From Ferroglobus placidus DSM 10642 (GTDB lineage Archaea; Halobacteriota; Archaeoglobi; Archaeoglobales; Archaeoglobaceae), in the NCBI RefSeq assembly GCF_000025505.1, contig NC_013849.1:570001-602000 (forward strand): 32,000 nucleotides of DNA. The letters are read 5' to 3'. Numbering within the stretch: position 1 is the stretch's first letter; each line of letters opens with the position of its first letter. A program made the translations under genes and the position numbers. Shown here one piece after another: positions 8,601-26,811 of this stretch. Below the pieces are notes generated by a model that saw nothing but the letters and a program-made list of their open reading frames with translations, was not told the origin of the DNA and ran no database searches.

Positions 8601-10856
8601 GACAGCACGGATCAAATCTGCATCGCCTGTCACAGCCTTAACGGTAGTTACGCATTAACAACTGCTAACTACGCTCACAGCCTCGATCCGGGAACTTCTG
8701 GCGGACCTGACTGTGTTGCCTGCCACGACATCGGTGGCTTCGCACCTAACGTTGATGTCATGGCTATGAAATCCGGAACTCATGCTAATCTGAACAGCGG
8801 TGCGTACAATGCAACCAAGCTGACAGACGAAATTGACAAAGCTTGCTGGGCATGCCATGGGGATGGAAGCGAGCCCGAGAAGCATCCGACCAGTTACAAG
8901 AATCCAAAGCAGTGCGAAGACTGTCATCTCAGCGGAGCATTCAATGCTCCAGTTGTAGCTAACCACTTCTCCAACGGAGCGAGCATAAAGGTGAATTCAA
9001 CATGCGTTGATTGCCACAGCAAGAACGAAATGCTTACCGCATACAGCGACTCTTCTGTAACAGTCATGTCAGCAGTTAGCCACTACGGCAAGAAGAGAGC
9101 AGACTTACTAACGCCTTCTCAGTACGACACTTACGACGTTAAATGCTCCTACTGCCACCAGAACACAACGACAGCATTCGCAGATGTCATGAAGAGCAGC
9201 TTCAGCTATAACGTGCCGGATCACTCAGATTCTCCGAACTCGCCGAGCTGTGTAGGATTGTGCCACGGATACGGAAGAATGCACGATGAAACGCTCAGCA
9301 AGAAGTCTCTGACAACTTCCAGGATGTGTCTCGACTGCCATTCTGCGGGAGGAAAGTTCAAGCACAACGGAACTGTTGACTGCTTCGTCTGCCACATGGA
9401 TCCCTCAGATTCGATAGGCAAGGCTCAAATACACGGAATTAAGTATCTCCAGAAAGACGGAAGCTTTGTAATGTATCAGCCAGCAAATGCGGTTGATTGC
9501 TACACATGCCATGCAACCGCCAACGTATCGCAAGTGCTGACATCTTATGGCTTAACAGCTCCTCAGATTACATGGTTGGGACACTCAACCGGGCAGAAGT
9601 GGGGAGTGTACTGGACAACAGATAACCAAGCCTGCGAATACTGTCATGGTGATACCAAGCACAACACAACTGCGCTTGGTAGAATCTCTCTCATAGCAGA
9701 CACATCAACGCTCGACAGCTTGGTATGCGCAGCTTGTCATGCAACAGACTCAGCCAACTACGCCGGAGATAAATGGTCTCCAACACCGCCAAGCATTGTC
9801 GGAACGGCTATAAATGAAGAATGGGTCAGCCACGACTTCCTCGGAGGAGATTACAGAGCCTCGAACTGTGCTGCATGCCACAATCCGGATGCTGCAGACG
9901 TTACCCAGCTTGCACACGACGTTAAAGCTGCAGCTGGAGGCTGTATTCAGTGTCATGCCAACCAGAGCGTTGCTTATGTTAACGTGAATGCAATGGGAAG
10001 ACACGCCAACGTTGACGGAGATGCAAATCTTACTGACAAAGACTGCACAACCTGCCATTTCGACATAAGCGGCAAATTCTCCGCTAACTACAAACCGATT
10101 GCCGGAGTTAACGTTTACAGCTGCGAAGACTGCCACGTTAACGGTAATCCGGTTAGCGTTCCGGCAGATGTGCAGATTTCGTCCTTCCAGCACGGTCTAA
10201 ACGACTGCAAGTCATGCCACATCGTCAGTTACGGATATCACTACGCTTCTCCGCTCGGTGATGTAGCAGCACTTCCAAGCTTCAGCTCGGATTATAGAAC
10301 GAATGAAGCAACGAGGGTTAACCTGTGCAACGACTGCCACCACAGAATGAACGCTGACGATGAGCCGTTCCACGCTCCCGGAATAACTCCAGCAATGGCG
10401 GGTTACTCCTCATGCGGCAGTGGAGGGTGGTGTCATGGTGGAAGCAGAGAAACGACGGATCCGCACTACGTTAAGCAGATATATCAATCGCCGTGGTTCT
10501 CATACTCGCTGAACATGCCCGATAACGTGTCCGGAAAGTTCAATGCATCTCTAAAGATATGGACAAACAACATACAGATGCACTACGGATATTACGAGGT
10601 GATTGACAGCTTCGGCAATGTAATCCTTAGAGCGAATCTCACTCCAGATGATGGAGAATGGGGACAGAGTTACGCAAACTGGGGAAGAGACAGCATTGAA
10701 AGCTTCACGATTTCAATCGATCCGTCTGGCTGGATGCCCGGCAACTACACCGTAAAGTTCTACGTGATGAGGGACGCTCCGAAAGTCGATCCGTCGAAGC
10801 CGTACTACATGAACGGCTACATACTGACTGTGAGCAAGCAGTTTGCAGTTCAGTAA
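5658..10856 (+). CDS. Giant secreted multihaem c-type cytochrome: 33 CXXCH plus 4 spacing variants, up to 37 haems
   Basis: The signal peptide is MNVGRILLLLTFVAVLAAVSA/AQE. Next come two Ig-like beta domains, a (PT)14 linker, and a Big/MG-like domain. The haem region starts at WWGCAWCH. I counted 33 CXXCH motifs plus CYDTCH, CTNSTCH, CVGLCH and CGSGGWCH. A C-terminal Ig-like domain follows. There are no Cys residues outside haem motifs. There is no TM or C-terminal anchor. Confidence 0.95.
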   Translation: MNVGRILLLLTFVAVLAAVSAAQEYDGSVAKVVILKNGVPELYFSKGDKVEFRVYSYVGDQKDLKLKLYNYKGDRFKEMRFSKKGDYYVAYWTADREGWIYYVITSRDKIRNIWGYIVVGNNDIGSIKLYKDGVESESFVQGDYVYVKIKTTDKDKVRRVLISNWAGDVRSLDGDEVEIISSTENELYFRFYLGNYLTEHLYPDKWASLRVETDRGIKASTPFFFGEAAPTPTPTPTPTPTPTPTPTPTPTPTPTPTAQGEVLKLSFDRLAVLDDPNSGSAASGFQNPPKSWGSDWWYGRATTITAYALVMNGTPVANAQVTFKLIAPDGSVKKQVTAYTDSSGLAKASFDLNNANFYGYWKIVAESGALSAEQTFVYNWWGCAWCHGNEKLTDHGTYTPKSPFVMGYDFHRNPKKGEHVDPIVDGRCTVCHQSYDAIPHDSYAMQGKDAIKNAPPADQYPAGIHKDKVQCEDCHEQSTVRYARPEVPGCYDTCHPLKNFNLTAIFTTTGYSVGGSYRSFYAYDVNTGEPAKAHTSQKTVPCLSCHNAAHNNTKPYVGADNSYTENEQCLSCHGYKHGTSVTNCVGCHGQDAHLVKAPKAGNCIECHKVGGFAPNVDVEAFNISVHANLNANAASSSGYPSVVGACWACHYNGTEPQSHDTAAFRNPKKCEDCHLSGNYGAPVVEEHIRFGRDITVNTYCTDCHSLGEMLNAFKDPEVTKNSTVSHYARKRIDLRTWDSGISDNCSYCHQNTTTVFSIVMSDVWSKNVPPHATNYPSPSCTNSTCHNSGLIHSSSLTKPTLTDTYCQNCHSKQFHNNAIDCSTCHLENGMPKNIHGIKYLTSSGTFTSNPSDAVDCTSCHQPGSSTSGILNAPVIPDPLKHSSDSSGQKWGSYWMTELESCYYCHGDTKHEAKALGNVSNLTLDPANVMNSSSLTTRWCYGCHVAGYQYYMGTSLNPQPPAIDVNNLGSANWLNHSSFVSADSTDQICIACHSLNGSYALTTANYAHSLDPGTSGGPDCVACHDIGGFAPNVDVMAMKSGTHANLNSGAYNATKLTDEIDKACWACHGDGSEPEKHPTSYKNPKQCEDCHLSGAFNAPVVANHFSNGASIKVNSTCVDCHSKNEMLTAYSDSSVTVMSAVSHYGKKRADLLTPSQYDTYDVKCSYCHQNTTTAFADVMKSSFSYNVPDHSDSPNSPSCVGLCHGYGRMHDETLSKKSLTTSRMCLDCHSAGGKFKHNGTVDCFVCHMDPSDSIGKAQIHGIKYLQKDGSFVMYQPANAVDCYTCHATANVSQVLTSYGLTAPQITWLGHSTGQKWGVYWTTDNQACEYCHGDTKHNTTALGRISLIADTSTLDSLVCAACHATDSANYAGDKWSPTPPSIVGTAINEEWVSHDFLGGDYRASNCAACHNPDAADVTQLAHDVKAAAGGCIQCHANQSVAYVNVNAMGRHANVDGDANLTDKDCTTCHFDISGKFSANYKPIAGVNVYSCEDCHVNGNPVSVPADVQISSFQHGLNDCKSCHIVSYGYHYASPLGDVAALPSFSSDYRTNEATRVNLCNDCHHRMNADDEPFHAPGITPAMAGYSSCGSGGWCHGGSRETTDPHYVKQIYQSPWFSYSLNMPDNVSGKFNASLKIWTNNIQMHYGYYEVIDSFGNVILRANLTPDDGEWGQSYANWGRDSIESFTISIDPSGWMPGNYTVKFYVMRDAPKVDPSKPYYMNGYILTVSKQFAVQ
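6345..6428 (+). repeat. (Pro-Thr)14 linker coding repeat
   Basis: It encodes PTPTPT...PT using mixed synonymous codons (CCA/CCG/CCT/CCC, ACT/ACA/ACC/ACG), so it is not a pure microsatellite. Confidence 0.9.
6774..7376 (+). repeat. ~603-bp block near-identical to 12543-13145 in giant cytochrome 2
   Basis: The offset is constant at 5769 nt with no indels. By eye I saw roughly 15 mismatches, almost all synonymous and clustered between ~6948 and ~7135. The last ~230 bp has one mismatch, giving F to L. The block covers haem motifs 1-5 plus CYDTCH. Confidence 0.85.
7458..8705 (+). repeat. Haem module copy A (~416 aa, 10 CXXCH plus 1 CX4CH)
   Basis: It runs from GNCIECHKVGGFAPNVDVEAF to QICIACHSLNG. 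It aligns position by position with copy B: CWACH, NPKxCEDCHLSG, CxDCH, SHYxxKRxDL, CSYCHQNTTT, IHGIKYL, GQKWGxYW, CxYCHGDTKH. Confidence 0.85.
8706..9941 (+). repeat. Haem module copy B (tandem duplicate of 7458-8705, diverged)
   Basis: It runs from PDCVACHDIGGFAPNVDVMAM to SNCAACHNPD. The first Cys codons of the two copies (7464 and 8712) are exactly 1248 nt apart. A third, truncated and degenerate start (GGCIQCHANQSVAYVNVNAMGRHAN) begins at ~9942. Confidence 0.85.
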
Positions 10857-10878: not shown

Positions 10879-12003
10879 TTATTTTAAAATTTTTCTCAAC
10901 ATTGCGGCTGAAGTAATTGAGAGGATTAATACTTCCACTCCAAGTGGGCTTTCTTTTGAAGTCTTTTCGTCGTTCCAGTATTTTACGGAAAAAGTCTCGG
11001 CTGGTATTTCGCTTTTGTTTACTATAGCCAGCCATATACTCCTGTTCTCCCTGAATATGGCTGACTGGTAAGCTACGATAACTCTGTCTTTTTCTATCAG
11101 AACGCTTTTTTGGTCGCATTTGAAGTTGAAAGGCTCTTCGAGCTGAGAAATGTACTCCACATTTCTCGACAGCTTTACAGGCTTGGTCCAGTTCACACCA
11201 TCTCTGCTGCTGATAAGATATACTTCCTCGTTGCCCTCCACTGTTGACGTGTAGGCAATCCAGATTCTCTCATCATCCGCCTTGGCATCGTTGTAGAGTG
11301 TGAAGTTTAGGGGAGGCGTGGAGGTTATTCTCGCGTGATTTTTCAGCTCGTAAGGTGAATCGCCATAGGCAATGAATATGTCGTGGTTGTTGAGGAGAGT
11401 CAGATTATCTTTGTCTCCTGTAAACTTCGCGTAGTTCATCCACCATTTTCCTTTGAATTCAAACAACTTTCCGAAAATGTATTCACCGTCTGGCGGAATT
11501 ACCACTTTCGCTTCGCTCCACGTTATGAAATCACGGCTTTCTCTTACGTAAATCCCGGTGCTTCCGTTCTCTTCAGCTACGCTGTACGTCAGCCAGAACT
11601 TTCCGCTTTTATCCTGATAAAGGTGTGGATACCAGTCTATCTTTTCGCTTTCCGCAACCGGATAAGGTTCGACCCAGTTCACACCATCGTAGCTGTAGGT
11701 CGCGTATATGTCGTAGTCGAATCCGTATTTTATCGACTCCGGATTTATTATCTCGTGCTTAACGTAAACGACTCTGAAAACTCCGTTTCTGTCGATGATA
11801 AACCACGGATGATAATCTCCCTGCTTCGTTCCGGGTATTTTCACAGGAGCGCTCCAGCTTTTTAAATCCTTCGAGCTTGTTATGTATATTCCGTCGTCGC
11901 CCTTGAAGACCATCCAGTAAGTGTCGTTAAATTTTTCCAGAACCGGATAACCTCCGTTGAACAGGTATATCAGCGTAACCAGAACAGCAGCAGTCTTCAG
12001 CAT
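10879..12003 (-). CDS. Secreted BNR/Asp-box repeat beta-propeller protein (sialidase-fold-like) with a C-terminal hydrophobic tail
   Basis: The N-terminal signal is MLKTAAVLVTLIYLFNGG. There are four Asp-box-like motifs: SSKDLKSWS, SYDGVNWV, SRDFITWS, SSRDGVNWT. The C-terminus is PLGVEVLILSITSAAMLRKILK. Confidence 0.75.
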   Translation of the reverse strand: MLKTAAVLVTLIYLFNGGYPVLEKFNDTYWMVFKGDDGIYITSSKDLKSWSAPVKIPGTKQGDYHPWFIIDRNGVFRVVYVKHEIINPESIKYGFDYDIYATYSYDGVNWVEPYPVAESEKIDWYPHLYQDKSGKFWLTYSVAEENGSTGIYVRESRDFITWSEAKVVIPPDGEYIFGKLFEFKGKWWMNYAKFTGDKDNLTLLNNHDIFIAYGDSPYELKNHARITSTPPLNFTLYNDAKADDERIWIAYTSTVEGNEEVYLISSRDGVNWTKPVKLSRNVEYISQLEEPFNFKCDQKSVLIEKDRVIVAYQSAIFRENRSIWLAIVNKSEIPAETFSVKYWNDEKTSKESPLGVEVLILSITSAAMLRKILK

Positions 12004-12098: not shown

Positions 12099-12110
12099 GG
12101 GGTGAATCCA

Positions 12111-15100
12111 ATGAAAACCCGCTTTTTAACTGAGGTAGCTTTATCAATTTTGCTTCTACTTGTAATCATCCCGATCACTGAGGCTCAGGAATTTAATGTA
12201 AAACTCTCTCTCGACAGGCTTGTTGTTCTTGACGATCCGAATTCTGGCAGTGCCGCTTCGGGATTTCAGAACCCGCCTAAAAGCTGGGACTCGGACTGGT
12301 GGTACGGAAGGGCAACGACGATAAAGGCGTACGCTGTAGTTCTTGGAGAAGAAGGTGCTTTGTCGGGTGTTCAGGTAACTTTTAGACTTATAAACCCGAA
12401 CGGTAATGTCGAATACACCACCACAGCAACGACCAACGCTGCGGGAATTGCGGAATTCGAATACGATATGAACAACAAGAATTACTACGGCTACTGGAAG
12501 GTTGAGGCTGAGGTAACCCTCGACGGAGTTACAAAGAGGGCGGAGCAAACCTTCGTTTACAACTGGTGGGGATGTGCGTGGTGTCATGGAAACGAGAAGC
12601 TGACAGACCACGGCACCTACACGCCGAAATCACCATTCGTAATGGGCTACGACTTTCACAGGAATCCGAAGAAGGGTGAGCATGTTGATCCTATAGTGGA
12701 CGGCAGGTGCACGGTGTGCCACCAGAGCTACGATGCAATTCCGCACGACAGCTACGCTATGCAAGGAAAAGATGCAATTAAGAACGCTCCTCCTGCCGAT
12801 CAGTATCCGGCTGGTATTCACAAAGATAAGGTTCAGTGCGAAGATTGTCATGAGCAATCGACGGTCAGATATGCTCGCCCTGAAGTTCCAGGCTGTTATG
12901 ACACGTGCCATCCACTAAAGAATTTCAACCTCACGGCAATTCTCACAACCACCGGCTACTCGGTTGGAGGCTCTTACAGATCCTTCTACGCCTACGATGT
13001 TAACACGGGAGAACCTGCTAAGGCTCACACATCTCAGAAAACCGTGCCCTGCTTGAGCTGCCACAACGCAGCTCATAACAACACCAAACCTTACGTCGGA
13101 GCAGACAACAGCTACACCGAAAACGAGCAGTGCCTGAGCTGCCACCTCAACGGTCAGCACTCCACAACAAATCCTGTTGATTGTGTTGACTGCCACAGTC
13201 AGGATGCCCATTCAATAAAGGTTGTGAAGAAGGGAGGAGGCTACGATTCTCCCTCTTCGAGCAATTCAGTACTTAAAAAGGATTGCGAGGAGTGTCACGT
13301 TTCAACAACCGGGAGCTTTTTCGAATCAAAAGGATACTCACCGAGGACTGACAGCTTTGGCAATAGCATAGCGAAGCACGCCGGAAAAGTTGATTGCAAA
13401 GACTGTCATGGAGATGAGAGCAGATTCCACAGAATAGCTTATCTGAGTTCTGACGGTAGTTTTGCTGACAAGCAGAGTGCATCGTACTGCTTCGACTGTC
13501 ACACGAATTCCGGAGCAAATTCTTACATAGAATCTAGAGGATACTATCCGCTAGCTATAACTTCCTTCCAGCATGGAAACGCGAGCTACGATGGTAAAAA
13601 CTGGGGCACTTACTGGAGTTCAGACAGAGAAGCATGTTACTACTGCCATCAGAGGTCTCCGCATGGAGATGTTAAAGGCAACGTTTCTGGACTGGATGTT
13701 AAAGCGGATTTATCTGGAAAAGCCTGTGCCGCATGTCACGTTAAAAGCTATTCGGGCTATATCGGAGACAGGTTGAACCCCGAACCTCCTGCAATTGACG
13801 TGAACAACACCGGCAGAGCTAAAAATTCAGCTGGAGAGGAATGGTATAACCATACGAGGTATCTTGAAGACTACAACGATGCAACGTGTTTTGGCTGTCA
13901 CGCACCTTCTCCGGACTTTCCGAGGGACTTCTACGCATTCGTCCACAACGTGGAAGAGGGATTAAGACCGGGGGCTGATTGCGCTTCTTGCCACGATCTG
14001 AACGAAAGACCGCCGAAAAGAGTGGATGTTTCAGCTTTTTCAAATTCGGTGCACGCCAATCTCAACAGCAACGCCTTAAACAGCACACCGGTAAATCCGC
14101 TGAGTAAAGCATGCTGGCTGTGTCATGGCGATGGGACTGAGCCGTCGGATCATCCCGACAACTATAAGAATCCGAAGAAGTGCGAAGATTGCCACCTCTC
14201 AGGAAATTACGGAGCTCCAGTTGTGGAGGAGCATATAAAGAGTGGAAAGCATGTTAAGGTTTCGGCGGAATGCTGGGACTGTCACGGCATTTCCGAGATG
14301 GTTGTTTTAAACTCGGACGAAGAAGGATCGAGTAAGGCTTTCGCAAGTCATTACGCGAAGCTGAGACAGGACTTATGGGTAAGAGGGTATTCGGGGGATG
14401 TCGGTCTGGATTGCTATTACTGTCACCAGAACGCAACATCGGCATTTAAAGCAGTAATGAAGAACGAGAATCACACCTACATGCCGGATCACGGTCTGAA
14501 TGACAGATCTTGTTGGGCTTGTCACGGGTTGGAGATGCATGTAAGATTGGACAAGCCTTCGGTTTCAAACACTTACTGCAAATCCTGTCATTCAGGCTAC
14601 GAGCTGCACAACGGAACTGTCAGCTGTTACGTCTGTCACATGGACGGAAGCGATACCACATACGACTCACCAAAAGCCCAGATTCACGGAATAAAGTACC
14701 CGTCTGCAAACGGCTACACTTCAGTAAAAAGCAAGGGGTGCTACGGATGCCATACGGGCAAGCTGAGCAAATCCACAAATGCCTGGGGAGTTTCTGTTCC
14801 AACAATTCCCGAATTCAGCCACAGCAACTATCCAAATAACGGAACGAGGTGGGGAGATTACTGGAATAGCGTTGATGATGCTTGCATATACTGTCACACC
14901 CCTGCCGTTCACAGCTCGAATTTGAAAGGAAACGTTTCGATTGTTAAAGGTTCGAACAGCTACAGAGCAGATTTAGCAAACTCATACTGGTGTTCCGCGT
15001 GCCACTACTCCTCGTACTCAGGATACAAAGGAGATTCCCTCAATCCTACGCCTCCTGACATCGCATCCTATTCAACCCCCTCAGACGGCATAAAGTGGTT

Positions 15101-17030
15101 CGATCACTCTTCCTATATCTCCTCAGATTATTCCGATGCGAAGTGCCTTGAGTGCCATGGAGAGAATGTCGTGAGAAGCAATGAGTTCGTCCATGCCGTT
15201 AAAGAAGGAGTGGGAGGAGCTTGCATGGATTGCCATACCGATCCTTATTATTCCTCGGTTGCTGTGAACGTTTCATCCTTTGGGAGGCATGCGAAGGTTG
15301 ATGGAAGAGAAGGCTTAGATGTCGATGACTGCAGGATCTGCCACTATTCTCCGTGGGAAATGCTCAGGAGTGGGTGGACTATCGTAAGCGTGACTTGCGA
15401 GGATTGTCATAAAGGAAACGTTCCAGAAGATGTCAAGATAACAGCTTTCCAGCACGGGAGCAACAGCTGTATTGATTGTCATGCGGGGGGCGGTTACGAG
15501 AAAGGTAAGCTTTACCACTATGACTTCTCCACGCCCTATGGATCTGTGAAGGATCCAGGGTGGAGCGAATGGAGCAAGAGCGTCGTTGACTGCTACGACT
15601 GCCATGTCAGCCATGCAAAGAGCGAGCCGTTCTACGCGATTGGAATAAGCAGCTACATGGCAACGAGCTTTTCATCCTGTGGCGGAGTTAACTGTCACGG
15701 AGGTGGAACTGTTCACAATGTCGTTAAAAGTCCGTACATGTATCCTCCGTTTGTCAGAGTCTCGATTGAGAGAAACATGGTACTCGAAGGAGAAACCGTT
15801 AGCGTTTCAGCCGATATATGGGGATACGACGTCCAGATTAACGATTCTTGGTATGAAGTGCTGGATGCAAAAGGCAACGTCCTTCTTTCCGGTAAAGCCT
15901 TACCGTCTGATGGCAGTTTCGGAGGACTCAAAAACGGATATGGATACGAGAGGGTTGAATTCAGCTTCAACGCAAACTTCGAACCCGGAGTTTACGAGGT
16001 AAGAGTGTATGCTGAGAAGGATACCGGTATGACTTCTTATGGCGAAGCCGAGCTCATTGTTGGGGCTGCTGGCAGCTCTGCTGCGAACTTCTACTTCGAA
16101 TCATGGAATCTCGACGGAACGCTGACGAACTGGGCTTTCGGAGGTAGCGGAACGCTTGAGAAGAGCAGCATTTCAAAGTCCGGATACTCTGCCAAGATCA
16201 CAGCAACCAGCGAGGCTTGGATCGAGAGCATAAAATTCCCTGTTGAAAGCAATAAAGAATACCTCGTAATCGTGTTCGCCAACTTCAGCAATAAGGTCGG
16301 TCTGACAGTGAAGAAGTGGAGCAATAATGCTCTACTGGAAACGACCCCAGAGGTCGTGGCTGAAGGAAATCCGGGAAGGTGGATAGCTTTTGGAACGGTG
16401 GTGAATTCCGGAAACGCCGACAATCTTTCAATACTGCTTAAGGTTTACAGCGGATACGCTTACTTCGACAACGTGTCTGTCGTAGCAGTTCCTCTGCTTG
16501 AGAACAGGGCAGTAAACGGGGAATTTGAAGAGGATGAAGATGCTTATGCGAGCTACGAAAAATCTGACGAGAACGTAAAAGCCTGGGAGCCGAAGAAGGT
16601 TAGCGGTTTCGTTTTGCCGGCAAAATATCCGGGGAGAGGTAGAGTTCTGGCTGTGCTTGGAACGGGATACTGGACTTCAGCGTATCAGGACGAAAGCTTC
16701 AGCACAGCTGCGAGAAGCTACGCAAGGGATTACGGGATAAGGATGTCTGGCGAATTCATCATCCTCGCGGACATCTACAAGTCATCCGAAGGTTTCGGAG
16801 GAGTTGAGCTGACATTCTGGGACTGGAGTTTCGATCAGGCGAAGAATAACCTTGTAGAGGATGGCTCTTACAAAGTTGGATTCTACGACAGTACCGACTG
16901 GAGAACTGTGGTAATCATAGACGACATGAATAATGCGAATTTGCTCCAAATAAAACTCAAGGGAGAGAACGTTAAAGAGCTAATGTTCGATAGAGTCAGA
17001 TGCTACTTGAACGAGGGAGTGGTAAACTAA
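12111..17030 (+). CDS. Giant secreted multihaem c-type cytochrome (29 CXXCH plus 2 variants) with a C-terminal Ig-like domain and two CBM4_9-like jelly-roll domains
   Basis: The track starts at GTG 12102. ATG 12111 is preferred (MKTRFLTEVALSILLLLVIIPITEA/QE). I counted 29 CXXCH plus CYDTCH and CGGVNCH. After the last haem motif (~15690) comes an Ig-like domain. Two domains then follow, starting N.xFE..W-like and ending YFDNVSVV and MFDRVRCY. There is no TM anchor. Confidence 0.95.
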   Translation: MKTRFLTEVALSILLLLVIIPITEAQEFNVKLSLDRLVVLDDPNSGSAASGFQNPPKSWDSDWWYGRATTIKAYAVVLGEEGALSGVQVTFRLINPNGNVEYTTTATTNAAGIAEFEYDMNNKNYYGYWKVEAEVTLDGVTKRAEQTFVYNWWGCAWCHGNEKLTDHGTYTPKSPFVMGYDFHRNPKKGEHVDPIVDGRCTVCHQSYDAIPHDSYAMQGKDAIKNAPPADQYPAGIHKDKVQCEDCHEQSTVRYARPEVPGCYDTCHPLKNFNLTAILTTTGYSVGGSYRSFYAYDVNTGEPAKAHTSQKTVPCLSCHNAAHNNTKPYVGADNSYTENEQCLSCHLNGQHSTTNPVDCVDCHSQDAHSIKVVKKGGGYDSPSSSNSVLKKDCEECHVSTTGSFFESKGYSPRTDSFGNSIAKHAGKVDCKDCHGDESRFHRIAYLSSDGSFADKQSASYCFDCHTNSGANSYIESRGYYPLAITSFQHGNASYDGKNWGTYWSSDREACYYCHQRSPHGDVKGNVSGLDVKADLSGKACAACHVKSYSGYIGDRLNPEPPAIDVNNTGRAKNSAGEEWYNHTRYLEDYNDATCFGCHAPSPDFPRDFYAFVHNVEEGLRPGADCASCHDLNERPPKRVDVSAFSNSVHANLNSNALNSTPVNPLSKACWLCHGDGTEPSDHPDNYKNPKKCEDCHLSGNYGAPVVEEHIKSGKHVKVSAECWDCHGISEMVVLNSDEEGSSKAFASHYAKLRQDLWVRGYSGDVGLDCYYCHQNATSAFKAVMKNENHTYMPDHGLNDRSCWACHGLEMHVRLDKPSVSNTYCKSCHSGYELHNGTVSCYVCHMDGSDTTYDSPKAQIHGIKYPSANGYTSVKSKGCYGCHTGKLSKSTNAWGVSVPTIPEFSHSNYPNNGTRWGDYWNSVDDACIYCHTPAVHSSNLKGNVSIVKGSNSYRADLANSYWCSACHYSSYSGYKGDSLNPTPPDIASYSTPSDGIKWFDHSSYISSDYSDAKCLECHGENVVRSNEFVHAVKEGVGGACMDCHTDPYYSSVAVNVSSFGRHAKVDGREGLDVDDCRICHYSPWEMLRSGWTIVSVTCEDCHKGNVPEDVKITAFQHGSNSCIDCHAGGGYEKGKLYHYDFSTPYGSVKDPGWSEWSKSVVDCYDCHVSHAKSEPFYAIGISSYMATSFSSCGGVNCHGGGTVHNVVKSPYMYPPFVRVSIERNMVLEGETVSVSADIWGYDVQINDSWYEVLDAKGNVLLSGKALPSDGSFGGLKNGYGYERVEFSFNANFEPGVYEVRVYAEKDTGMTSYGEAELIVGAAGSSAANFYFESWNLDGTLTNWAFGGSGTLEKSSISKSGYSAKITATSEAWIESIKFPVESNKEYLVIVFANFSNKVGLTVKKWSNNALLETTPEVVAEGNPGRWIAFGTVVNSGNADNLSILLKVYSGYAYFDNVSVVAVPLLENRAVNGEFEEDEDAYASYEKSDENVKAWEPKKVSGFVLPAKYPGRGRVLAVLGTGYWTSAYQDESFSTAARSYARDYGIRMSGEFIILADIYKSSEGFGGVELTFWDWSFDQAKNNLVEDGSYKVGFYDSTDWRTVVIIDDMNNANLLQIKLKGENVKELMFDRVRCYLNEGVVN
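12543..13145 (+). repeat. Partner of the 6774-7376 near-identical block
   Basis: See the 6774-7376 feature. A second, shorter similar patch is 12201-12335 versus 6447-6580 (LDDPNSGSAASGFQNPPKSW). A ~60-bp patch at 14167-14235 matches 7651-7720 (NPKKCEDCHLSGNYGAPVVEEH). Confidence 0.85.
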
Positions 17031-19611: not shown

Positions 19612-22600
19612 ATGAGGCTGAAAGCAATCGCCTTGGCAATAATAATTTTCTTCTCACTTGCTTATCTGACAGAAGCGAAAGGTGTTCCGTCGAAAGTGAT
19701 CGTGTGGACTGATAAGAAGTTGTATCATCCGTGGTATATCTATTCCGATAGAGGAATGAAGACAGGGAATGTTGATTATGCCACGATGAAAGTTTACGTT
19801 GCAGTCTTAGATGACGATGGAAACTTCATGTCTGGCAGAAATGTTAGGGTGTACATAGTGGATGAATACAGATATGACCACTACGATAAAGGAGATTCGT
19901 CTTATCATCACAATAATCAATCTACGGGTGGCTTATTTATTAATACATTTATATCTCTATCTGATTCAGATGGGGACGGTGTTTATGAGGGCACAGTCAG
20001 CTTAGATAGTTATTTAGATAACGATTATTCTAACTTAAAGGACGATCACCTAAGGATAAAAGTTGTGGCTGAAGATGTGGATTCTGGTTTAATCGGTTTA
20101 ACATACATACTTGCATCGCCTTTAAGCTGTATATGTCATAAGGATTATTCGGACAAATACGATCCCACAAATAAAGAACCGACGAAAGACCTGGCCCATG
20201 GAGATCATGTGAATGAACAACAAGATAAACCCTCTGATATATGTACGGTTTGTCATTATGGCTATGAGCACTTCTACGAAAACATTACTGATACGATTCC
20301 AGATGGTTACAAGGATGTGCACTTTTATAAACAGAATCCACCTGATGTGACCTACTCTGTTAAGGGAGGTGAGTTTGCAAATTATGATTGGAACTCAACT
20401 TGGATTAATACTTCACTGAACTCCTTCTCGTGGGCGGAAAAAAGCGGAGGTGGAGCACCATACTGTGCCAACTGCCACATTAACTCATCAACCGGGCAGG
20501 TTTACGATTGGGACTCAAGCAGCGAAATAGTTCAGTGCACGAACTGCCACAGCGAAACAGGGATGGAAAATACAGTTCCACCTTCAGCTTACAACTCTTA
20601 TGGCACGGCTGGTAAAGGCGACGTTTCCCACTACAACTCTTCGAGAAGCGGAGCGTTAGGAAGGGGTGTTGCCTGCGGCGTCTGTCACAATTCGGTTCAC
20701 AGCCTGCAACTTCCCAACGAGAGCTATAAAGAATACTACATAGCCGAGCAGTGCTGGAGCTGTCATAATGTGAGTGGTGGCATTGATCTTGATTCTTCTG
20801 ACTCAATTCCTAACAGTGTTTCCACCCATCCTGAGGTGACAAATGATTGCAGAGCTTGCCATCTCGATAATAACCTTGCTTTAGATTCTCATTCCGTTCC
20901 AGTAGCCGAACCTCCATCTCCGAACTGCGTTAAGTGCCACGACATTGGAGGAAAATCCCTCGTGCATGTTGACGTTTCAGCCATGAACACCACAGAGAAC
21001 AGACACTACAACCTGAACAACAGAACTGATCCGACTGCCAACGGCTTGAGGTGGGAAAACAGACTTTGCTGGGCGTGTCACGGAGAAGACGACAACGGAG
21101 ATGGAGTGATAGAGTATTCCGAGCAGCCCCCCGATCAGCATCCCGCTAAATACAGAAATCCGAGGATGTGCACTGACTGCCACAAAAACGCTACTTACGG
21201 AAGCTTAATCGGAGCCCCTCAGGTTTCGAGGCACACTTGGTACGATAGCGTAATAAATACTCCCGCTGTAACTTACTGTGGTGACTGTCACGGATTGCCG
21301 GAAAACGTTCTGCCAAATGCGGATGAAGAATTTACGTACGAAAGCGCTGCAGCCCACTATGGAAGATACAGATACGATCTGATAAATCTCTTAGAAACCG
21401 ATCCTGACGCATTCTGCAACTACTGTCACCAGAACGAAACATCTCCTTATCCCTTCGCGAATCCAGAGAACAAAATAAGACCCGAGCATTCGAACACCGG
21501 CACGCCTCCGGAGTGCGTTGAGTGTCACGGTCTGGGCAACATACACAGCACAAATCTTACCATTCCTTCTGTAAACGACCAGCTCTGCCAGAAGTGCCAT
21601 CCCGATAAGCAACCACACAACGGAACGATAGGTTGCGTCGAATGTCACATGAACAACACTCCAAGCTACATCCACCCGATGACGTTTTTGCAGCCTGACG
21701 GCAGCGTTTCCACGTCGAAGCTAACTGCCGTAAGTTGCTACGACTGCCACAAGTCTAACAAGCTCGACAACCTGCTGATAAGCTGGGGAGCAACGAGGTT
21801 GCCAAAAGTTAAGAATCAGCACCACAGCGAGTCTCCCATAAACGGCTCGAAGTGGAACGACTACTGGAGCTACCAGCCGAGGTATCTTACGTTCGCATCC
21901 TCCTACAGCGTCTCAGAAGGCTACGTTCAGGATTTCAGCAACATGATGAGCGTGAGCAACAACTTCTCCATTATTTACGAAGCTCCGAAGGGCGGAATCG
22001 CGGCTTTCAAGGGAACGTTTCCGTCTAATCAGGGATTCGACTCGAACTATGATGGATGGAGCTACAGTGCTGAATCTCCCGCAACAGCCGGATACGATCC
22101 ATCTTACGGAAATCCAGCCGGCTCGATCTACTCCTACATCTACACAAGGCTGAGAACAACGAGCTATTACTCGACCGAATGGGTTTCTGCATTCGTTTAC
22201 GAGAAGAACAAACCGGTAGCCTACGCCAAGTTCAGCTTCGATTACAGAGTAACGGCAACCACAAGGCTGAATGAAATTAAAATCACAGCATACATCGAGG
22301 ATCCTGATGGAATAAGGTATCAGGTTTATCAGGTTTCCAAAACCTCTCCGGATGTGACCTGGAATAAAGTGGAAGTTGAGATGTCTAACCCCGATTCCGT
22401 CTTCTCAAAAAGCGGAGTTTACAAGATCATTCTGAAGACGGAGTTCGGATTGACCACATACAAGGGAAGCAAGGAAGGCAAGGTTTACTTTGACAACGTG
22501 AAGCTTGAAATTAACGAAGAGGAGTATCAGCAGTACGAAGTCGTCGTGCAATTTGAAAACGTCCCTAACACTCAGTACACCCTCAACCTCGAGGGAGAGT

Positions 22601-25206
22601 ATCTCGTTAGTAAGGAGCCGGCTGTTCTCTACATCTACGATTATTCTTCAAATTCCTGGGGAAGAAGTTTCGAGTTAAACGCCACAGCCTGGAAGAAGTT
22701 CAGAATTCAGCTGAATCCAAACGAGTATCAGGGTGGTGTAGTCAAGATAAAAATTGACGACAAAAACAAGGGAATTGACACGATTCAGGATTACGTGAAA
22801 TTCAAATATCTGCTTGTTCAAAGCGACACCGGCAAACCCTATCCGTGCGAGCAGTGTCACGCCTCAGAAAAACACGAAAATCCAGCTCTTGGAAGCATAA
22901 TAGCGATTATGGGTAGCAACAAGATAAACACGACCGATCTGAACAACTCTTACTGGTGCATCCAGTGCCACTGGAAGAATGCTGCAAACTACACCGAGAT
23001 GATAAATGAATACAACTTAACGAGGGGATTACCGGTTCCGCCCGAAATAACCAACGGAACTTACGCCTATCCGGTGGCGAGGGACGGGACTAAGCATGTG
23101 GATCACACAGACTGGATCAATCAGTACGGCTACTCAGACAGAGCGTGTGCTTTATGCCACGCAACCTACTTCGTTGACGGGGTTACGACGACTACTGAAA
23201 TCATCCACGACACTGAGGTTGGAACGAACTGGACGAGAGACTACCTCTTCGCTGAGTGCATAAACTGCCATTCAACCGACGTCAACACTTCCAACTTCGG
23301 CAGACACGTAAACCTTGAGAGTGACGGAGGATTAACCTACAAGGATTGTATTAAATGCCATTACAAGCTGGGAGGGATGGGATATAACTACACCGCTACG
23401 GTGGGACTGAATCTGTACGATTGCAGGAGCTGCCACACGCCAGAGGGAGAGTCCAATTTAAAACCTGCCGATTCAAATCTCATAATTGTCAACTTCTCTC
23501 ACGGAACCAATCTCTGCTCCAATTGCCACTATCCGAAGGGAGACTACCACAACGATTATTCCGATCCTCTCGGCACTGTCGAAGCTCCCGGGTGGAGCGG
23601 ATGGGTTAACGGCACTCCTGTAAGCTGTAACGACTGTCACTTTGAGAGAAACCTTGATGACGAGCCATTCCATGCCCCGGGAATAAGCAGGTTTAAAGCT
23701 TCTTACAGCTCCTGTTCCGGTTCAAACTGCCACGGAGACGGTAGGATACATAGCGTAAAGCCAAGAGATCTGGATGTTGAGCCATTCGTAAGCGTAAGCC
23801 TGAACAGAACGTGGATAAATCCGGGAGAATCCATACTTGTTACAGCAAAGGTAAGTGGTAAGGGGTCACAGATCAGCTACGCCTATTATGAGCTGTTGGA
23901 CATGGACGGCAAGGTAATCTCTTCAGCAGATCTCTATCCAAAAGACGGTGAGTGGGGTGGCGTTGATAGTACTATTTTAGGAAACGGTTACGAGGAGTTT
24001 GAGTTCGTGATAAATGGCTCGGTAACTTCTGCACTTAAAGCCGGAATTTACAAAGTTAGAGTTACTGCAATGCAGGACGCTCCTAAGAGCAGAGAAGGAA
24101 GTTACTACCCAAGAAACGGAGCTTACGGAAGTGGTTACGCTGAATTCAGCGTCGGAGAGGCTGGAAGCCTTGCCACAAACTTCGACTTTGAGGCTTTAAA
24201 CGTTTCCGGGTGGTTCGTTAACTGGAAGAAAGTAATTGTTTCAGGAAACCCCGTTATTGAGAGCAGTGATGCGGTATATCACTCTTACAACCACTCCCTT
24301 CACATATCCTCTTCAGCGGGAGATGACTGCTATGTTCAGTCGATAAACGTGAGCGTGACTGAAGGAGAGAAATACTTACTTCTCGTGTGGGTTAAAGGAA
24401 GTGCCGATTTTGCCGGGATAAGCATTAATCAGTGGAATTCATCAAACCTTGTCTCTTCAACCGATCCTGTAGGTATAATCGGCTCCACAAGCGACTGGAC
24501 TCAGTTCGGAATAATCTTCGATGCATTAGGAGATTTGATAAACGTTCAGCTGCACGTTAAAGGAAACGCTGACATCTATTTCGACGACGTCAAGTTATTG
24601 AGAATGCCTTCATACAAAGTGGTCGGACCAGTAAACGGAGATTTCGAATATAATGAGGATGATCTTACCCTGAAAAACGCTGAGGAGTGGCAACAGTATT
24701 ATGGATACGTTAACGGAAAAGATCCGGCTGTAAAAGCCTGGGAGCCTTACACGAGTGATGCGGGAATAAATGTGAGCAAAGTATATTCCGGAGTTCAGGC
24801 TGTCGAGATCGACGGAACAGGCTTCTGGGTTTCACCGGGAGGTTACGACAGGATGCAGGATGACAGCAGTGGAGTTTGGTTTAACGCTTCGAAGTATTAC
24901 GTTGACAAATACGGCATCTTCGTGGATAAACCGTACTACCTCGTCTCGTTTGCGATGTTCGCAGATAGAATTAATGACTACGCAGGAATGAACATTACGT
25001 TCTGGGTATACGATAAAAGCAATGGTGATTACTTCCAGATTTCTGATCTCGGCTTCGTTGTCGGAACGAGGGAAAACATGTCCGACTACGTTGTCGGAGT
25101 TGTCAATGTCACCATACCCTTCATCTCCAACCTGATGGAGATAAGGCTTGAAGCATCTAACAGCCACGTGGTGTTCGACGATGTCAGGATTTATGAAGTT
25201 CAGTAA
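19612..25206 (+). CDS. Giant secreted multihaem c-type cytochrome (23 CXXCH plus 1 CX4CH) with an internal jelly-roll insertion and a C-terminal Ig-like domain plus two CBM4_9-like domains
   Basis: The signal is MRLKAIALAIIIFFSLAYLTEA/KG. An N-terminal Ig-like domain follows, then 15 CXXCH motifs and a ~326-aa Cys-free insert (21868-22845). After the insert come 8 CXXCH motifs plus CSGSNCH and an Ig-like domain. The two C-terminal domains end in YFDDVKLL and VFDDVRIY. Confidence 0.95.
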   Translation: MRLKAIALAIIIFFSLAYLTEAKGVPSKVIVWTDKKLYHPWYIYSDRGMKTGNVDYATMKVYVAVLDDDGNFMSGRNVRVYIVDEYRYDHYDKGDSSYHHNNQSTGGLFINTFISLSDSDGDGVYEGTVSLDSYLDNDYSNLKDDHLRIKVVAEDVDSGLIGLTYILASPLSCICHKDYSDKYDPTNKEPTKDLAHGDHVNEQQDKPSDICTVCHYGYEHFYENITDTIPDGYKDVHFYKQNPPDVTYSVKGGEFANYDWNSTWINTSLNSFSWAEKSGGGAPYCANCHINSSTGQVYDWDSSSEIVQCTNCHSETGMENTVPPSAYNSYGTAGKGDVSHYNSSRSGALGRGVACGVCHNSVHSLQLPNESYKEYYIAEQCWSCHNVSGGIDLDSSDSIPNSVSTHPEVTNDCRACHLDNNLALDSHSVPVAEPPSPNCVKCHDIGGKSLVHVDVSAMNTTENRHYNLNNRTDPTANGLRWENRLCWACHGEDDNGDGVIEYSEQPPDQHPAKYRNPRMCTDCHKNATYGSLIGAPQVSRHTWYDSVINTPAVTYCGDCHGLPENVLPNADEEFTYESAAAHYGRYRYDLINLLETDPDAFCNYCHQNETSPYPFANPENKIRPEHSNTGTPPECVECHGLGNIHSTNLTIPSVNDQLCQKCHPDKQPHNGTIGCVECHMNNTPSYIHPMTFLQPDGSVSTSKLTAVSCYDCHKSNKLDNLLISWGATRLPKVKNQHHSESPINGSKWNDYWSYQPRYLTFASSYSVSEGYVQDFSNMMSVSNNFSIIYEAPKGGIAAFKGTFPSNQGFDSNYDGWSYSAESPATAGYDPSYGNPAGSIYSYIYTRLRTTSYYSTEWVSAFVYEKNKPVAYAKFSFDYRVTATTRLNEIKITAYIEDPDGIRYQVYQVSKTSPDVTWNKVEVEMSNPDSVFSKSGVYKIILKTEFGLTTYKGSKEGKVYFDNVKLEINEEEYQQYEVVVQFENVPNTQYTLNLEGEYLVSKEPAVLYIYDYSSNSWGRSFELNATAWKKFRIQLNPNEYQGGVVKIKIDDKNKGIDTIQDYVKFKYLLVQSDTGKPYPCEQCHASEKHENPALGSIIAIMGSNKINTTDLNNSYWCIQCHWKNAANYTEMINEYNLTRGLPVPPEITNGTYAYPVARDGTKHVDHTDWINQYGYSDRACALCHATYFVDGVTTTTEIIHDTEVGTNWTRDYLFAECINCHSTDVNTSNFGRHVNLESDGGLTYKDCIKCHYKLGGMGYNYTATVGLNLYDCRSCHTPEGESNLKPADSNLIIVNFSHGTNLCSNCHYPKGDYHNDYSDPLGTVEAPGWSGWVNGTPVSCNDCHFERNLDDEPFHAPGISRFKASYSSCSGSNCHGDGRIHSVKPRDLDVEPFVSVSLNRTWINPGESILVTAKVSGKGSQISYAYYELLDMDGKVISSADLYPKDGEWGGVDSTILGNGYEEFEFVINGSVTSALKAGIYKVRVTAMQDAPKSREGSYYPRNGAYGSGYAEFSVGEAGSLATNFDFEALNVSGWFVNWKKVIVSGNPVIESSDAVYHSYNHSLHISSSAGDDCYVQSINVSVTEGEKYLLLVWVKGSADFAGISINQWNSSNLVSSTDPVGIIGSTSDWTQFGIIFDALGDLINVQLHVKGNADIYFDDVKLLRMPSYKVVGPVNGDFEYNEDDLTLKNAEEWQQYYGYVNGKDPAVKAWEPYTSDAGINVSKVYSGVQAVEIDGTGFWVSPGGYDRMQDDSSGVWFNASKYYVDKYGIFVDKPYYLVSFAMFADRINDYAGMNITFWVYDKSNGDYFQISDLGFVVGTRENMSDYVVGVVNVTIPFISNLMEIRLEASNSHVVFDDVRIYEVQ

Positions 25207-25246
25207 TGGAAAAAACTTAAAGTCCATTTCAACATTTCGAAGTTCC

Positions 25247-25678
25247 ATGAAAAAGCTACTCTTTACAGCTATTATTCTTTCATTGTTTCTATCCTTTGGC
25301 TGTATTCAAAGGGAAGTTCAGAAAGCTCCGGTAATTGAGGTGAATTTTACTCATTATGTTATTGAAGGACATCATTTGCTTAAGATAAGTGATGCTAAGG
25401 TTAGGTACATAGAGGTCGATAAAGTTAGCTTAAAAAAATACCCGGATTTCCCCGGAATTCATGTTTTTGGAGTGTACAGTAAAGGAGTTACCCCCGTTTA
25501 CGTGCTACCGGTGGAGGTGGAAGGTAATTTAACTGGTTACGTGGGGTTCGAAAAAGATAAGGTTCCGGAAAATAACCAGAGCGTTCTTATTGTTGTTGCT
25601 GTTAGAGATGCAAAAGGGAACGATTTGGCTGTAGCTCGGAAGGTGATAGTATGGCAGTTGGAAGAAAAACAATCTTGA
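25247..25678 (+). CDS. Small putative lipoprotein, hypothetical
   Basis: [21 protein letters not shown] has a lipobox-like LSFGC. The track ORF from 25148 would overlap the end of giant 3, so in-frame ATG 25247 is preferred. Confidence 0.6.
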
Positions 25679-26811
25679 CTTTATTTTTAGTAGTTTTTGC
25701 ATTATCCGTTGCCTCGGCATATGTGCCGTATTTTCCTGTGAAGGTTTACCCTTCAAATCCCGATAATGGCACAGTAGTTTACGTTTCCGTTGAAAACACC
25801 GGAGGTTACGGGAAGTATTGCATTTTCAGCTGGTATCACAATAACCAGCTGGTTCAGCAAAACAAAATTGAGATTACCGGAAGTTCAGCGGAAGATTATA
25901 GAATAGTCACCTACGGAAGCTGGAGAGTGAGAGTGGACGTTTACGACTATTACGATCAGCTGATAAACTTCACCGAAGTTTCATTTGCAGTTATACTTTA
26001 TCAAGCTCCGGTGGTAGATTTTACTTTTTCACCTCAAAATCCCGAGGCTGGAGATGTTGTAGAGTTTGACGCTTCAGCAAGCTACGATCCTGATGGAGGA
26101 GATATTGCTGAATACTCTTGGGATTTCGGTGATGGGGCAACGATAACAACAGGTGATCCAGTGGTCACGCACATATACGCTGAAGAAGGTGAGTACGTGG
26201 TTACGCTTAAAGTAACAGATGACGAAGGAGTATCTTCCGAAATTTCGAAGACTGTTAGAGTCGTTGCTACTCCGACACCCACGCCAACACCAACTCCAAC
26301 TCCGACACCAACCGCAACGCCAGAAGTTACGCCAACTCCAACACCGACTCCAACTCCGATGGAGACTGTAACGCCAACTCCAACACCGGCAGAGGAGACA
26401 CCCACGCCAACTCCTACTCCAACCCCAACTCCGACACCCACATCATCAACATCAGGTGGATTTTCTGGAAGTGGAGGCGGTGGAGGAAGCTATACTACCA
26501 CGCCAACTCCGACACCAACTCCATCTCCCACACAATCTCCTACTCCAACCCCAACACCAAAGATCACGCAAACTCCAGCACCTACTTCGACTCCAACGCC
26601 AACTCCAACAGCTACGCCGGAAGCAACACCAACCGCTGAAATAGTTAAAACTGAAACCCCCAAACCGGAAAAAGCGCAGGAGAAACCAACTCCAACGCCT
26701 TTCAATGAAAGCAAAGAAATCCCCGTGAGAGAAGAGAAGAAACGAATTCCCGCTTTAGAAGCACTGTACGCGTTGCTGCTAATTGTTGCGGTAGCTTTGC
26801 TGAGAAGGTAG
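25651..26811 (+). CDS. Surface protein: signal peptide, beta domain, PKD domain, long Thr/Pro linker, C-terminal TM anchor
   Basis: The signal is [23 protein letters not shown]. The PKD signature is [70 protein letters not shown]. The TP-rich tract is ~140 aa. The C-terminus is [21 protein letters not shown]. Confidence 0.85.
26269..26700 (+). repeat. Thr/Pro-rich low-complexity linker coding region, interrupted by a Gly/Ser patch at ~26446-26490
   Basis: TPTPTPTP runs use mixed codons. The antisense GVGVGV ORFs (26082..26441 and 26490..26714) are artefacts of this tract. Confidence 0.9.

Follow-up and report, generated by a model that had tools for sequence, protein, structure and literature searches.

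In the Shewanella cytochrome MtrC, beta-barrels alternate in series between the five-haem domains. Beta-domains beside the five-haem modules of MtrC are already known, and so is the jelly-roll fold of carbohydrate-binding modules (CBMs). For the transfer of electrons from archaea to minerals or partner cells, almost all current knowledge comes from gene lists, and to our knowledge, there is no giant archaeal cytochrome with a defined contact site. Haem-free domains in or on giant archaeal cytochromes have also been reported, including S-layer, peptidase-M6-like, and pectin-lyase-like domains (PMC9012536). In this study, we analyzed a 32,000-nucleotide (nt) stretch of the genome of Ferroglobus placidus DSM 10642 (contig NC_013849.1, positions 570,001 to 602,000; called the window below). 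It carries a cytochrome cluster with three giant cytochromes, five small cytochromes, a BNR-like gene, and a PKD-domain gene. Our subject is the third giant, in which a five-haem module is interrupted by a haem-free cassette of 326 amino acids (aa). The unnamed cassette family, its nested construction, and its fixed site within a five-haem module across several archaeal orders are new. The three giants are as follows (positions are those of the window).

5658 to 10856: giant cytochrome 1, with 33 CxxCH motifs
12102 to 17030: giant cytochrome 2, with 29 CxxCH motifs
19612 to 25206, plus strand: giant cytochrome 3, 1864 aa, with 23 CxxCH motifs

The product of giant 3 is 100% identical to a public F. 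placidus protein named "Carbohydrate-binding CenC domain protein". Its N-terminus is signal-peptide-like, and we found neither a C-terminal membrane helix nor a sorting signal. The cassette is useful for annotation, because giant 3 is currently labelled only from its C-terminal CenC match.

The Insert and Its Host Haem Module

An earlier note on this DNA, made from the letters alone, had proposed that a Cys-free region of about 326 residues separates the motif GSKWNDYW from the following haem motif of giant 3. The coordinates were exact: GSKWNDYW (aa 745-752) runs up to nt 21867, and the haem Cys that follows it (in YPCEQCH) is aa 1079, at nt 22846. The stretch between them (nt 21868-22845) contains 0 Cys, as the note had said, and also 0 His. 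Since Cys accounts for 5.7% of the haem-bearing part of giant 3, such a run is not expected by chance (probability about (0.943)^326, or ~5e-9, by our own arithmetic from composition). Without Cys and His, the insert cannot ligate c-type haem. The stretch had also been described as rich in Tyr, Ser, and Asn. This is right for Tyr (10.4% vs 6.4% in the rest of the protein) but not for the other residues (Ser, Thr, and Asn together 23.0% vs 22.5%). The insert lies in the middle of the chain, with 15 haems upstream and 8 downstream. The module, its two flanking motifs, and the four insert-free junctions used for comparison are listed below.

21574 to 23016, plus strand: host haem module (about aa 655-1135), with C659, C675, C709, the insert, C1079, and C1116
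21844 to 21867, plus strand: GSKWNDYW, last conserved motif of the upstream half of the module (aa 745-752)
22846 to 22860, plus strand: CEQCH, first haem motif of the downstream half (aa 1079-1083), followed by the conserved ..KH...ALG
8319 to 8372, plus strand: insert-free junction of giant 1 (QKWGSYW, 6 aa, CYYCH)
9594 to 9647, plus strand: insert-free junction of giant 1 (QKWGVYW, 6 aa, CEYCH)
13596 to 13649, plus strand: insert-free junction of giant 2 (KNWGTYW, 6 aa, CYYCH)
14844 to 14897, plus strand: insert-free junction of giant 2 (TRWGDYW, 6 aa, CIYCH)

In giants 1 and 2, all four W(G)xYW motifs reach C.YCH after 6 residues, in agreement with the short spacing noticed before. To compare the modules, giant 3 (aa 655-1185 minus 753-1076) was aligned by MAFFT with aa 802-995 and 1220-1412 of giant 1 and aa 410-605 and 822-1022 of giant 2. 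The insert-deleted giant 3 was collinear with these four insert-free modules (28-38% identity over ~185 columns), which supports the earlier proposal of a single module cut in two. After removal of the insert, the five haem motifs, IH..K(Y/F)L, W..YW, C..CH...H, ALG, and PP.I are all in register, and C659, C675, C709, C1079, and C1116 match the order and spacing of the five motifs in the insert-free modules. With the insert left in place, MAFFT mis-aligned the modules. Furthermore, a Cytochrome_C7 match crosses the giant 3 junction only once the insert is removed. The insertion point is thus the short loop between W..YW and C..CH, that is, between haem motif 3 (C709) and haem motif 4 (C1079).

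We also compared the modules with Pfam PF22113 (MtrC/MtrF domain II/IV). Giant 1 aa 1220-1412 passes the threshold (44.5 bits, cut-off 30), giant 2 aa 822-1022 lies under it (24.9 bits), and the insert-deleted giant 3 has no PF22113 match at E up to 0.1. The giant 3 module would therefore belong to PF22113 only transitively, through its 28-38% identity to the modules of giants 1 and 2. To judge from these alignments, the host is a five-haem module of the same type as those of its paralogues, split by the insert.

A scan of one genome per species gave 53 related loci, which lie in genomes of Methanoperedens, Methanocellales, Methanosarcinales, and other archaea. The spacing from G..W..(Y/F)W to C..CH was obtained for 66 junctions, a sample that is biased because the search patterns were derived from the flanks of insert-bearing modules. 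It is 6-12 aa in 54 junctions, 320-345 aa in 10, 147 aa in one, and 449 aa in one. The distribution of junction length is sharply bimodal (6-12 vs at least 147 aa).

Fold and Nested Architecture of the Cassette

The result of structure prediction showed that the insert is folded rather than disordered. The AlphaFold2 model, for which a 14-sequence alignment was used as input, is all-beta and has a mean predicted local distance difference test score (pLDDT) of 91.3, with no segment below 50. It includes 23 strands and only two short helices. The predicted template modelling score (pTM) is 0.68, and this is expected for two domains whose mutual orientation is loosely defined. When the model was searched with Foldseek against the PDB, as had been recommended, CBM jelly rolls were matched at probability 1.0. 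There were 126 matches at E ≤0.001, and the top one was the tandem CBM22-1/CBM22-2 of Xyn10C (4xup, E 2e-8). Further matches were CBM11 (1v0a, 6r3m), CBM61 (2xom, target-normalized TM-score 0.73), and CBM4, and the list also includes reelin repeats, the MAM regions of meprin and enteropeptidase, and Vip3 domains. MtrC and OmcA chains were absent among the top 50 matches.

The insert had been called a jelly-roll region. Its fold class is indeed that of a jelly roll, but it is not a single domain. Iterative searches, segment profiles, and one natural variant (L015, described below) point to two nested domains. Local iterative searches revealed three separable pieces, which in giant 3 are as follows.

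21868 to 22005, plus strand: N-seg, predicted first piece of an outer discontinuous beta-sandwich (aa 753-798, insert residues 1-46), with 4 short strands
22006 to 22515, plus strand: inner CenC/CBM-like jelly roll (aa 799-968, insert residues 47-216), opened by PSNQGFDSNYDGW and closed by KVYFDNVKLE
22480 to 22509, plus strand: the closing strand KVYFDNVKLE (aa 957-966)
22516 to 22845, plus strand: C-dom, predicted second piece of the outer beta-sandwich (aa 969-1078, insert residues 217-326), with 7 strands and the end KFKYLLVQSDTGKPYP

The N-seg bears an invariant Glu (E38, insert numbering here and below), and the inner jelly roll has a conserved GNPAGS loop together with W64, W105, F109, D125, W165, Y185, and D209. 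In giant 3 (P0001 of our protein set), the segment profiles match in order: nseg at 755-794 (9e-18), cbm at 800-968 (2e-57), and cdom at 971-1072 (5e-34). The order is invariably N-seg(s), centre, C-dom(s). Fourteen complete carriers have the three pieces in counts of 1/1/1, P0038 and P0041 have them in counts of 2/1/2, and the unassigned gaps of P0041 fit the size of a third pair of N-seg and C-dom. In addition, the cassettes at the equivalent loop of P0011 (486 aa) and L028 (Euryarchaeota MFD03899; 449 aa) have two N-segs, a different centre of ~130-150 aa, and two C-doms.

Meanwhile, the 147-aa insert of L015 (Methanocellales CSMAG_2511) occupies the equivalent loop of a homologous module inside an uninterrupted 1637-aa frame. 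There, the N-seg is joined straight to the C-dom and the inner domain is missing. BLASTP aligned this insert with residues 2-51 (E 2e-6) and 241-326 (E 6e-12) of the giant 3 insert and skipped the centre. The matching copy numbers and L015 suggest that N-seg and C-dom are two parts of one outer beta-sandwich. Thus, the cassette appears to consist of an outer beta-sandwich of ~155 aa with a CenC-like jelly roll inserted within it, and the whole would be a three-level nesting, with one domain held by another and both by a haem module.

Distribution and Conservation

The earlier note regarded the insert as unusual and considered it in giant 3 only. In fact, a family of archaeal cytochromes keeps the cassette at the equivalent loop. 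When 1.84 billion representative proteins were searched exhaustively with phmmer, only 17 matched the insert at E ≤0.001; one of them, P0036, is a protein with FN3-like repeats and was rejected as a spurious, repeat-driven match. A word-index search with the 326-aa insert returned no match, although its database holds the identical P0001 and the 81%-identical orthologue P0002. Negatives of this kind of search with short or low-complexity-like queries are unreliable.

Three groups of carriers were found. The first includes giant cytochromes with the cassette at the equivalent loop, from Geoglobus acetivorans, Methanoperedens, Methanocellales, and Methanosarcinales. The cassettes of the last three lineages are ~25-33% identical to that of giant 3, and some genomes have three copies. 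The second includes haem-free archaeal surface proteins (e.g., from Methanogenium) with a pilin-like N-terminus, Ig-like Big_1 repeats, and a C-terminal cassette. The third includes proteins of ~490 aa from Thermoleophilia (Miltoncostaea), found in a cluster with a weak WxL-interacting cell-surface domain. The insert-free orthologues that the note had suggested looking for were not found in related genomes; only insert-free paralogous modules were seen.

The gene neighbourhood of the third group was inspected in Miltoncostaea oceani (CP064356.1, 2170628-2184100; L001). The 490-aa cassette protein lies there among small unannotated genes, one of which has a weak WxL-interacting peptidoglycan-binding domain and another a weak Big_7 match, and GGDEF/HD-GYP signalling genes flank the run. 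This run may be an operon for a cell-surface complex.

Between Ferroglobus and Geoglobus, the insert is 80.4% identical without gaps, and the haem parts are 74% and 85% identical. The inner jelly roll is 78% identical in the same pair and ~25-30% identical across orders. Furthermore, the G+C content and the G+C content at third codon positions (GC3) of the insert match those of the flanks. This level of conservation and the match in G+C content indicate an old insert that purifying selection maintains rather than an accident of recent date; a recent mobile insertion was ruled out on the same grounds. The residues G18, E38, F57, W64, G81, G85, S86, W105, F109, D125, W165, Y185, D209, V232, P233, L241, and G290 are shared by the three groups of carriers. 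Structural calcium is bound in many CBMs by the Asp of the closing "FDxV" strand together with an acidic residue close to the first one, which is a possible lead for the acidic positions here. The cassette was not mentioned in the literature that we examined on archaeal giant cytochromes, including the survey of PMC9012536.

In addition, four homologues that bear PF07752 (P0014, P0020, P0025, and P0030) have their haem chain broken by a Cys-free insert of another kind, ~204 aa long (CH.K....KYTVIDR...). This insert appears to be the arrangement described in PMC9012536 for MHC-A/B of anaerobic methanotrophic archaea (ANME).

Relation to CBM Families and to the C-Terminal Domains

Giant 3 also has two CBM-like domains at its C-terminus, which served as comparators.

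24166 to 25203, plus strand: two C-terminal CBM-like domains of giant 3 (aa 1519-1666 and aa 1670-1864)

The strand KVYFDNVKLE had been likened to the terminal strands of such domains. The likeness holds for this last strand, but homology beyond it was not found by BLASTP or hhalign. Paralogy of the insert with the CBM-like domains that end giants 2 and 3 was rejected by three approaches: BLASTP aligned only VYFDNVKL, profile-profile comparison by hhalign gave 11-13 columns at a probability below 2%, and neither giant 1 nor giant 2 was recruited by local jackhmmer. The insert and the C-terminal domains are therefore related by fold class, not by paralogy.

Giant 3 aa 1519-1647 has a weak match to PF02018 (CBM_4_9; 22.7 bits vs a cut-off of 25.9), and neither the insert nor any of 14 family members matches PF02018 at E up to 1. 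The insert is thus a beta-jelly-roll according to AlphaFold2 and Foldseek, but it is not recognized by the PF02018 profile. Likewise, the S-layer domain PF07752 had no match on the insert or its relatives, and a sequence search of the PDB with the insert had no match.

Proposed Role of the Cassette and Alternatives

We propose that this haem-free two-domain cassette in a surface loop of the module is a docking or adhesion unit that fixes the wire to a surface. On balance, we consider this reading probable, although by no means assured. Each nested layer would start and end in one domain, so that the two ends of the cassette would meet. With its ends able to meet, the cassette could fill a short loop without parting the halves of the haem module. 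The module would close around the loop, and the haem chain would stay continuous. Since the cassette has neither Cys nor His, it most likely takes no part in electron transfer and would be redox-inert. Through it, the haem wire would be held at its middle against a surface outside the cell, which may be a glycan-coated or mineral particle or the surface of a cell. The docking or adhesion role is suggested by the analogy with the distal ends of haem-free surface proteins and by the lectin-like fold. Furthermore, F. placidus and Geoglobus require direct contact with Fe(III) oxide for its reduction (PMC8280799), which makes a docking device plausible.

Several points weigh against a docking or adhesion unit. 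For the whole module with its flanks, AlphaFold2 reached a pLDDT of only 58, and the haem flanks scored below 50. That N-seg packs against C-dom is suggested by sequence architecture; in the same poor model, these two pieces lose confidence together while the centre keeps a pLDDT of 82-96, which would fit nesting but is weak evidence. The putative ligand-binding role has no assigned binding site. The residues conserved across the family are chiefly core aromatics, glycines, and turns, and the few acidic ones are possibly structural. No family model in Pfam or NCBIfam, including the carbohydrate-binding ones, matches the insert or its relatives. The hematite-binding motif [ST][AVILMFYW][ST]P[ST] is absent from all three giants. 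The cassette lies mid-chain, whereas a terminal contact site might rather be looked for at the distal end. In addition, the cytochromes that PMC13104607 singles out as key to Fe(III) reduction do not include giant 3.

The main alternative shares the lectin-like fold with our proposal but places the target on the cell itself. The cassette would bind the cell's own S-layer or its glycans and so retain a secreted cytochrome that has no other anchor. The signal-peptide-like N-terminus of giant 3 and its lack of a detected C-terminal membrane helix or sorting signal are in favour of this, as is the place of the cassette in mid-chain, 15 haems from one side and 8 from the other, and a lectin-like fold would suit a glycosylated S-layer. 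There is also a precedent, since ANME giant cytochromes have an S-layer domain embedded in the haem chain (PMC9012536), and the Cys-free gaps of ~204 aa in the four PF07752-bearing homologues appear to be of this sort. However, the cassette is not similar to PF07752, giants 1 and 2 are equally anchorless yet lack a cassette, and the haem-free carriers place it farthest from their pilin-like N-terminus, which points outward. We regard an envelope anchor as somewhat unlikely, but serious. The cassette might instead bind nothing specific and act as a spacer or shield that stiffens or orients the wire, mediates self-assembly of the cytochrome, or covers exposed haems. The conserved positions are chiefly core and turn residues with no evident ligand site, and the centre is exchangeable or dispensable in L015, L028, and P0011 while the outer domain is invariably kept. 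Nevertheless, a mere spacer seems improbable to us, for the inner jelly roll of Ferroglobus is still 78% identical in Geoglobus and ~25-30% identical across orders, where the GNPAGS loop is conserved, and the cassette is found at the tips of stalked surface proteins, as binding units typically are.

A direct part in redox chemistry has also to be considered, either as a cofactor or shuttle site (flavin docking, as proposed for beta-barrels I/III of MtrC/OmcA) or as an electron-hopping path through a Tyr relay. We judge it very improbable. The matches of the fold are CBM jelly rolls with no MtrC or OmcA chain in the top 50, the cassette is also present in haem-free proteins, and the high Tyr content that could favour a relay in giant 3 (10.4% vs 6.4% elsewhere) is not family-wide, since other carriers have 2.1% to 9%. 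MtrC-family proteins do pair five-haem domains with beta-domains, and the giant 1 paralogue matches PF22113, which would be in line with a cofactor site. F. placidus and Geoglobus give no sign of secreted shuttles (PMC8280799, PMC13104607). Finally, the insert could be a mis-assembly, a gene-fusion error, or a functionless recent mobile insertion, for which we found no support other than the presence of a large insertion. There is no break in the reading frame, the public F. placidus protein record is identical, the insert is gap-free in Geoglobus at 80% identity, it recurs in the equivalent loop at at least 12 loci of other archaeal orders, and its G+C content and GC3 match the flanks. An artefact or recent accident is thus effectively refuted.

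Returning to the docking or adhesion unit, a broader form of this proposal is conceivable. The loop between haem motifs 3 and 4 might be a dedicated docking port into which variants of a nestable adhesin cassette were plugged repeatedly, namely the outer sandwich alone, the outer sandwich with the CBM-like jelly roll, and doubled outer layers with other centres. We put this forward tentatively, and would sooner expect it to fail than to hold. If it is true, the cassette would mark the exit of electrons from the wire to a mineral or partner cell that is bound there, and it would represent a new, widely distributed archaeal adhesin domain family.

In any case, the cassette (aa 753-1078; inner domain aa 799-968) is a concrete and separable candidate for a contact or anchoring site of archaeal electron wires. 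It is relevant to Fe(III) oxide reduction by contact in Ferroglobus and Geoglobus and to metal-coupled methane oxidation in relatives of Methanoperedens. Beyond that, it represents an unnamed domain family and, as predicted from the architecture, a clear example of domain-in-domain insertion over three levels.

Genomic Context

The cytochrome cluster is syntenic in Geoglobus acetivorans. From the gene order, giants 1, 2, and 3 are probably Ferp_0670, Ferp_0672, and Ferp_0676. Ferp_0670 and Ferp_0672 are reported to be important for Fe(III) reduction by PMC13104607, which cites Smith et al. 2015. All three giants have signal-peptide-like N-termini, and no C-terminal transmembrane helix or obvious sorting signal was found in them.

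We also found that ~610 nt of DNA are 95-100% identical between giants 1 and 2, in register at an offset of 5769, whereas the flanking DNA is unrelated (~25-30% identity). This block spans the CAWCH...CLSCH haem block and looks like a recent gene conversion or segmental duplication between them. In addition, a (Thr-Pro)n linker of ~28 residues (PTPTPT...) in giant 1 divides the haem-free N-terminal beta-domains from an MG2/Big_1-like domain and the haem chain. These features and the neighbouring genes are listed below.

6768 to 7380 and 12537 to 13150: the ~610-nt block shared by giants 1 and 2
6345 to 6430: the Thr-Pro linker of giant 1 (aa ~230-257)
10879 to 12003, minus strand: BNR-repeat-like gene (sialidase/GH-like beta-propeller), between giants 1 and 2 and on the opposite strand
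25148 to 25678, plus strand: 176-aa open reading frame 3' of giant 3, with no family matched
25651 to 26811, plus strand: 386-aa PKD-domain protein downstream of giant 3

The BNR-repeat-like gene keeps the same position in Geoglobus acetivorans. The TTG start of the 176-aa open reading frame overlaps the end of giant 3, and thus the true start may lie further downstream. The Geoglobus counterparts of the 176-aa and 386-aa genes encode 136 aa and 490 aa and are found in equivalent places.

Comparison with Known Systems

The inner domain shares its fold class with CBM4/9 "CenC", CBM22, CBM11, and CBM61, and like them it is non-catalytic and lies on an extracellular protein. It also has the usual opening "xGFD...GW" and closing "YFDNVxL" strands of CBM jelly rolls. 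However, no CBM-family sequence model matches the cassette, and the likeness is one of predicted fold. Moreover, the roll of the cassette is nested in a beta-sandwich, and the pair is nested in a haem module.

The tip-adhesin domains of stalked archaeal and bacterial surface proteins are another parallel, because a cassette at 22-30% identity ends haem-free pilin-like/Big_1 proteins, for example in Methanogenium. These carriers are themselves uncharacterized, so the analogy gives an architecture rather than a proven function.

ANME MHC-A/B are likewise giant archaeal extracellular multi-haem cytochromes whose haem chain is broken by a haem-free, beta-rich domain, and some of them are distant homologues of giant 3. 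They differ in that their domain is PF07752 (~204 aa), that it is found at another site, and that its proposed role is in crossing the S-layer.

Finally, the decahaem cytochromes MtrC, MtrF, OmcA, and UndA of Shewanella contain PF22113 five-haem modules, as do the paralogues of giant 3 in the window, and they also join haem domains and beta-domains on a cell-surface metal reductase. The module of giant 3 lies below the PF22113 threshold, and its beta-domain is a jelly roll, whereas that of MtrC is a split barrel. They also differ in position: the beta-domains of giant 3 lie inside the five-haem module, between haem motifs 3 and 4.

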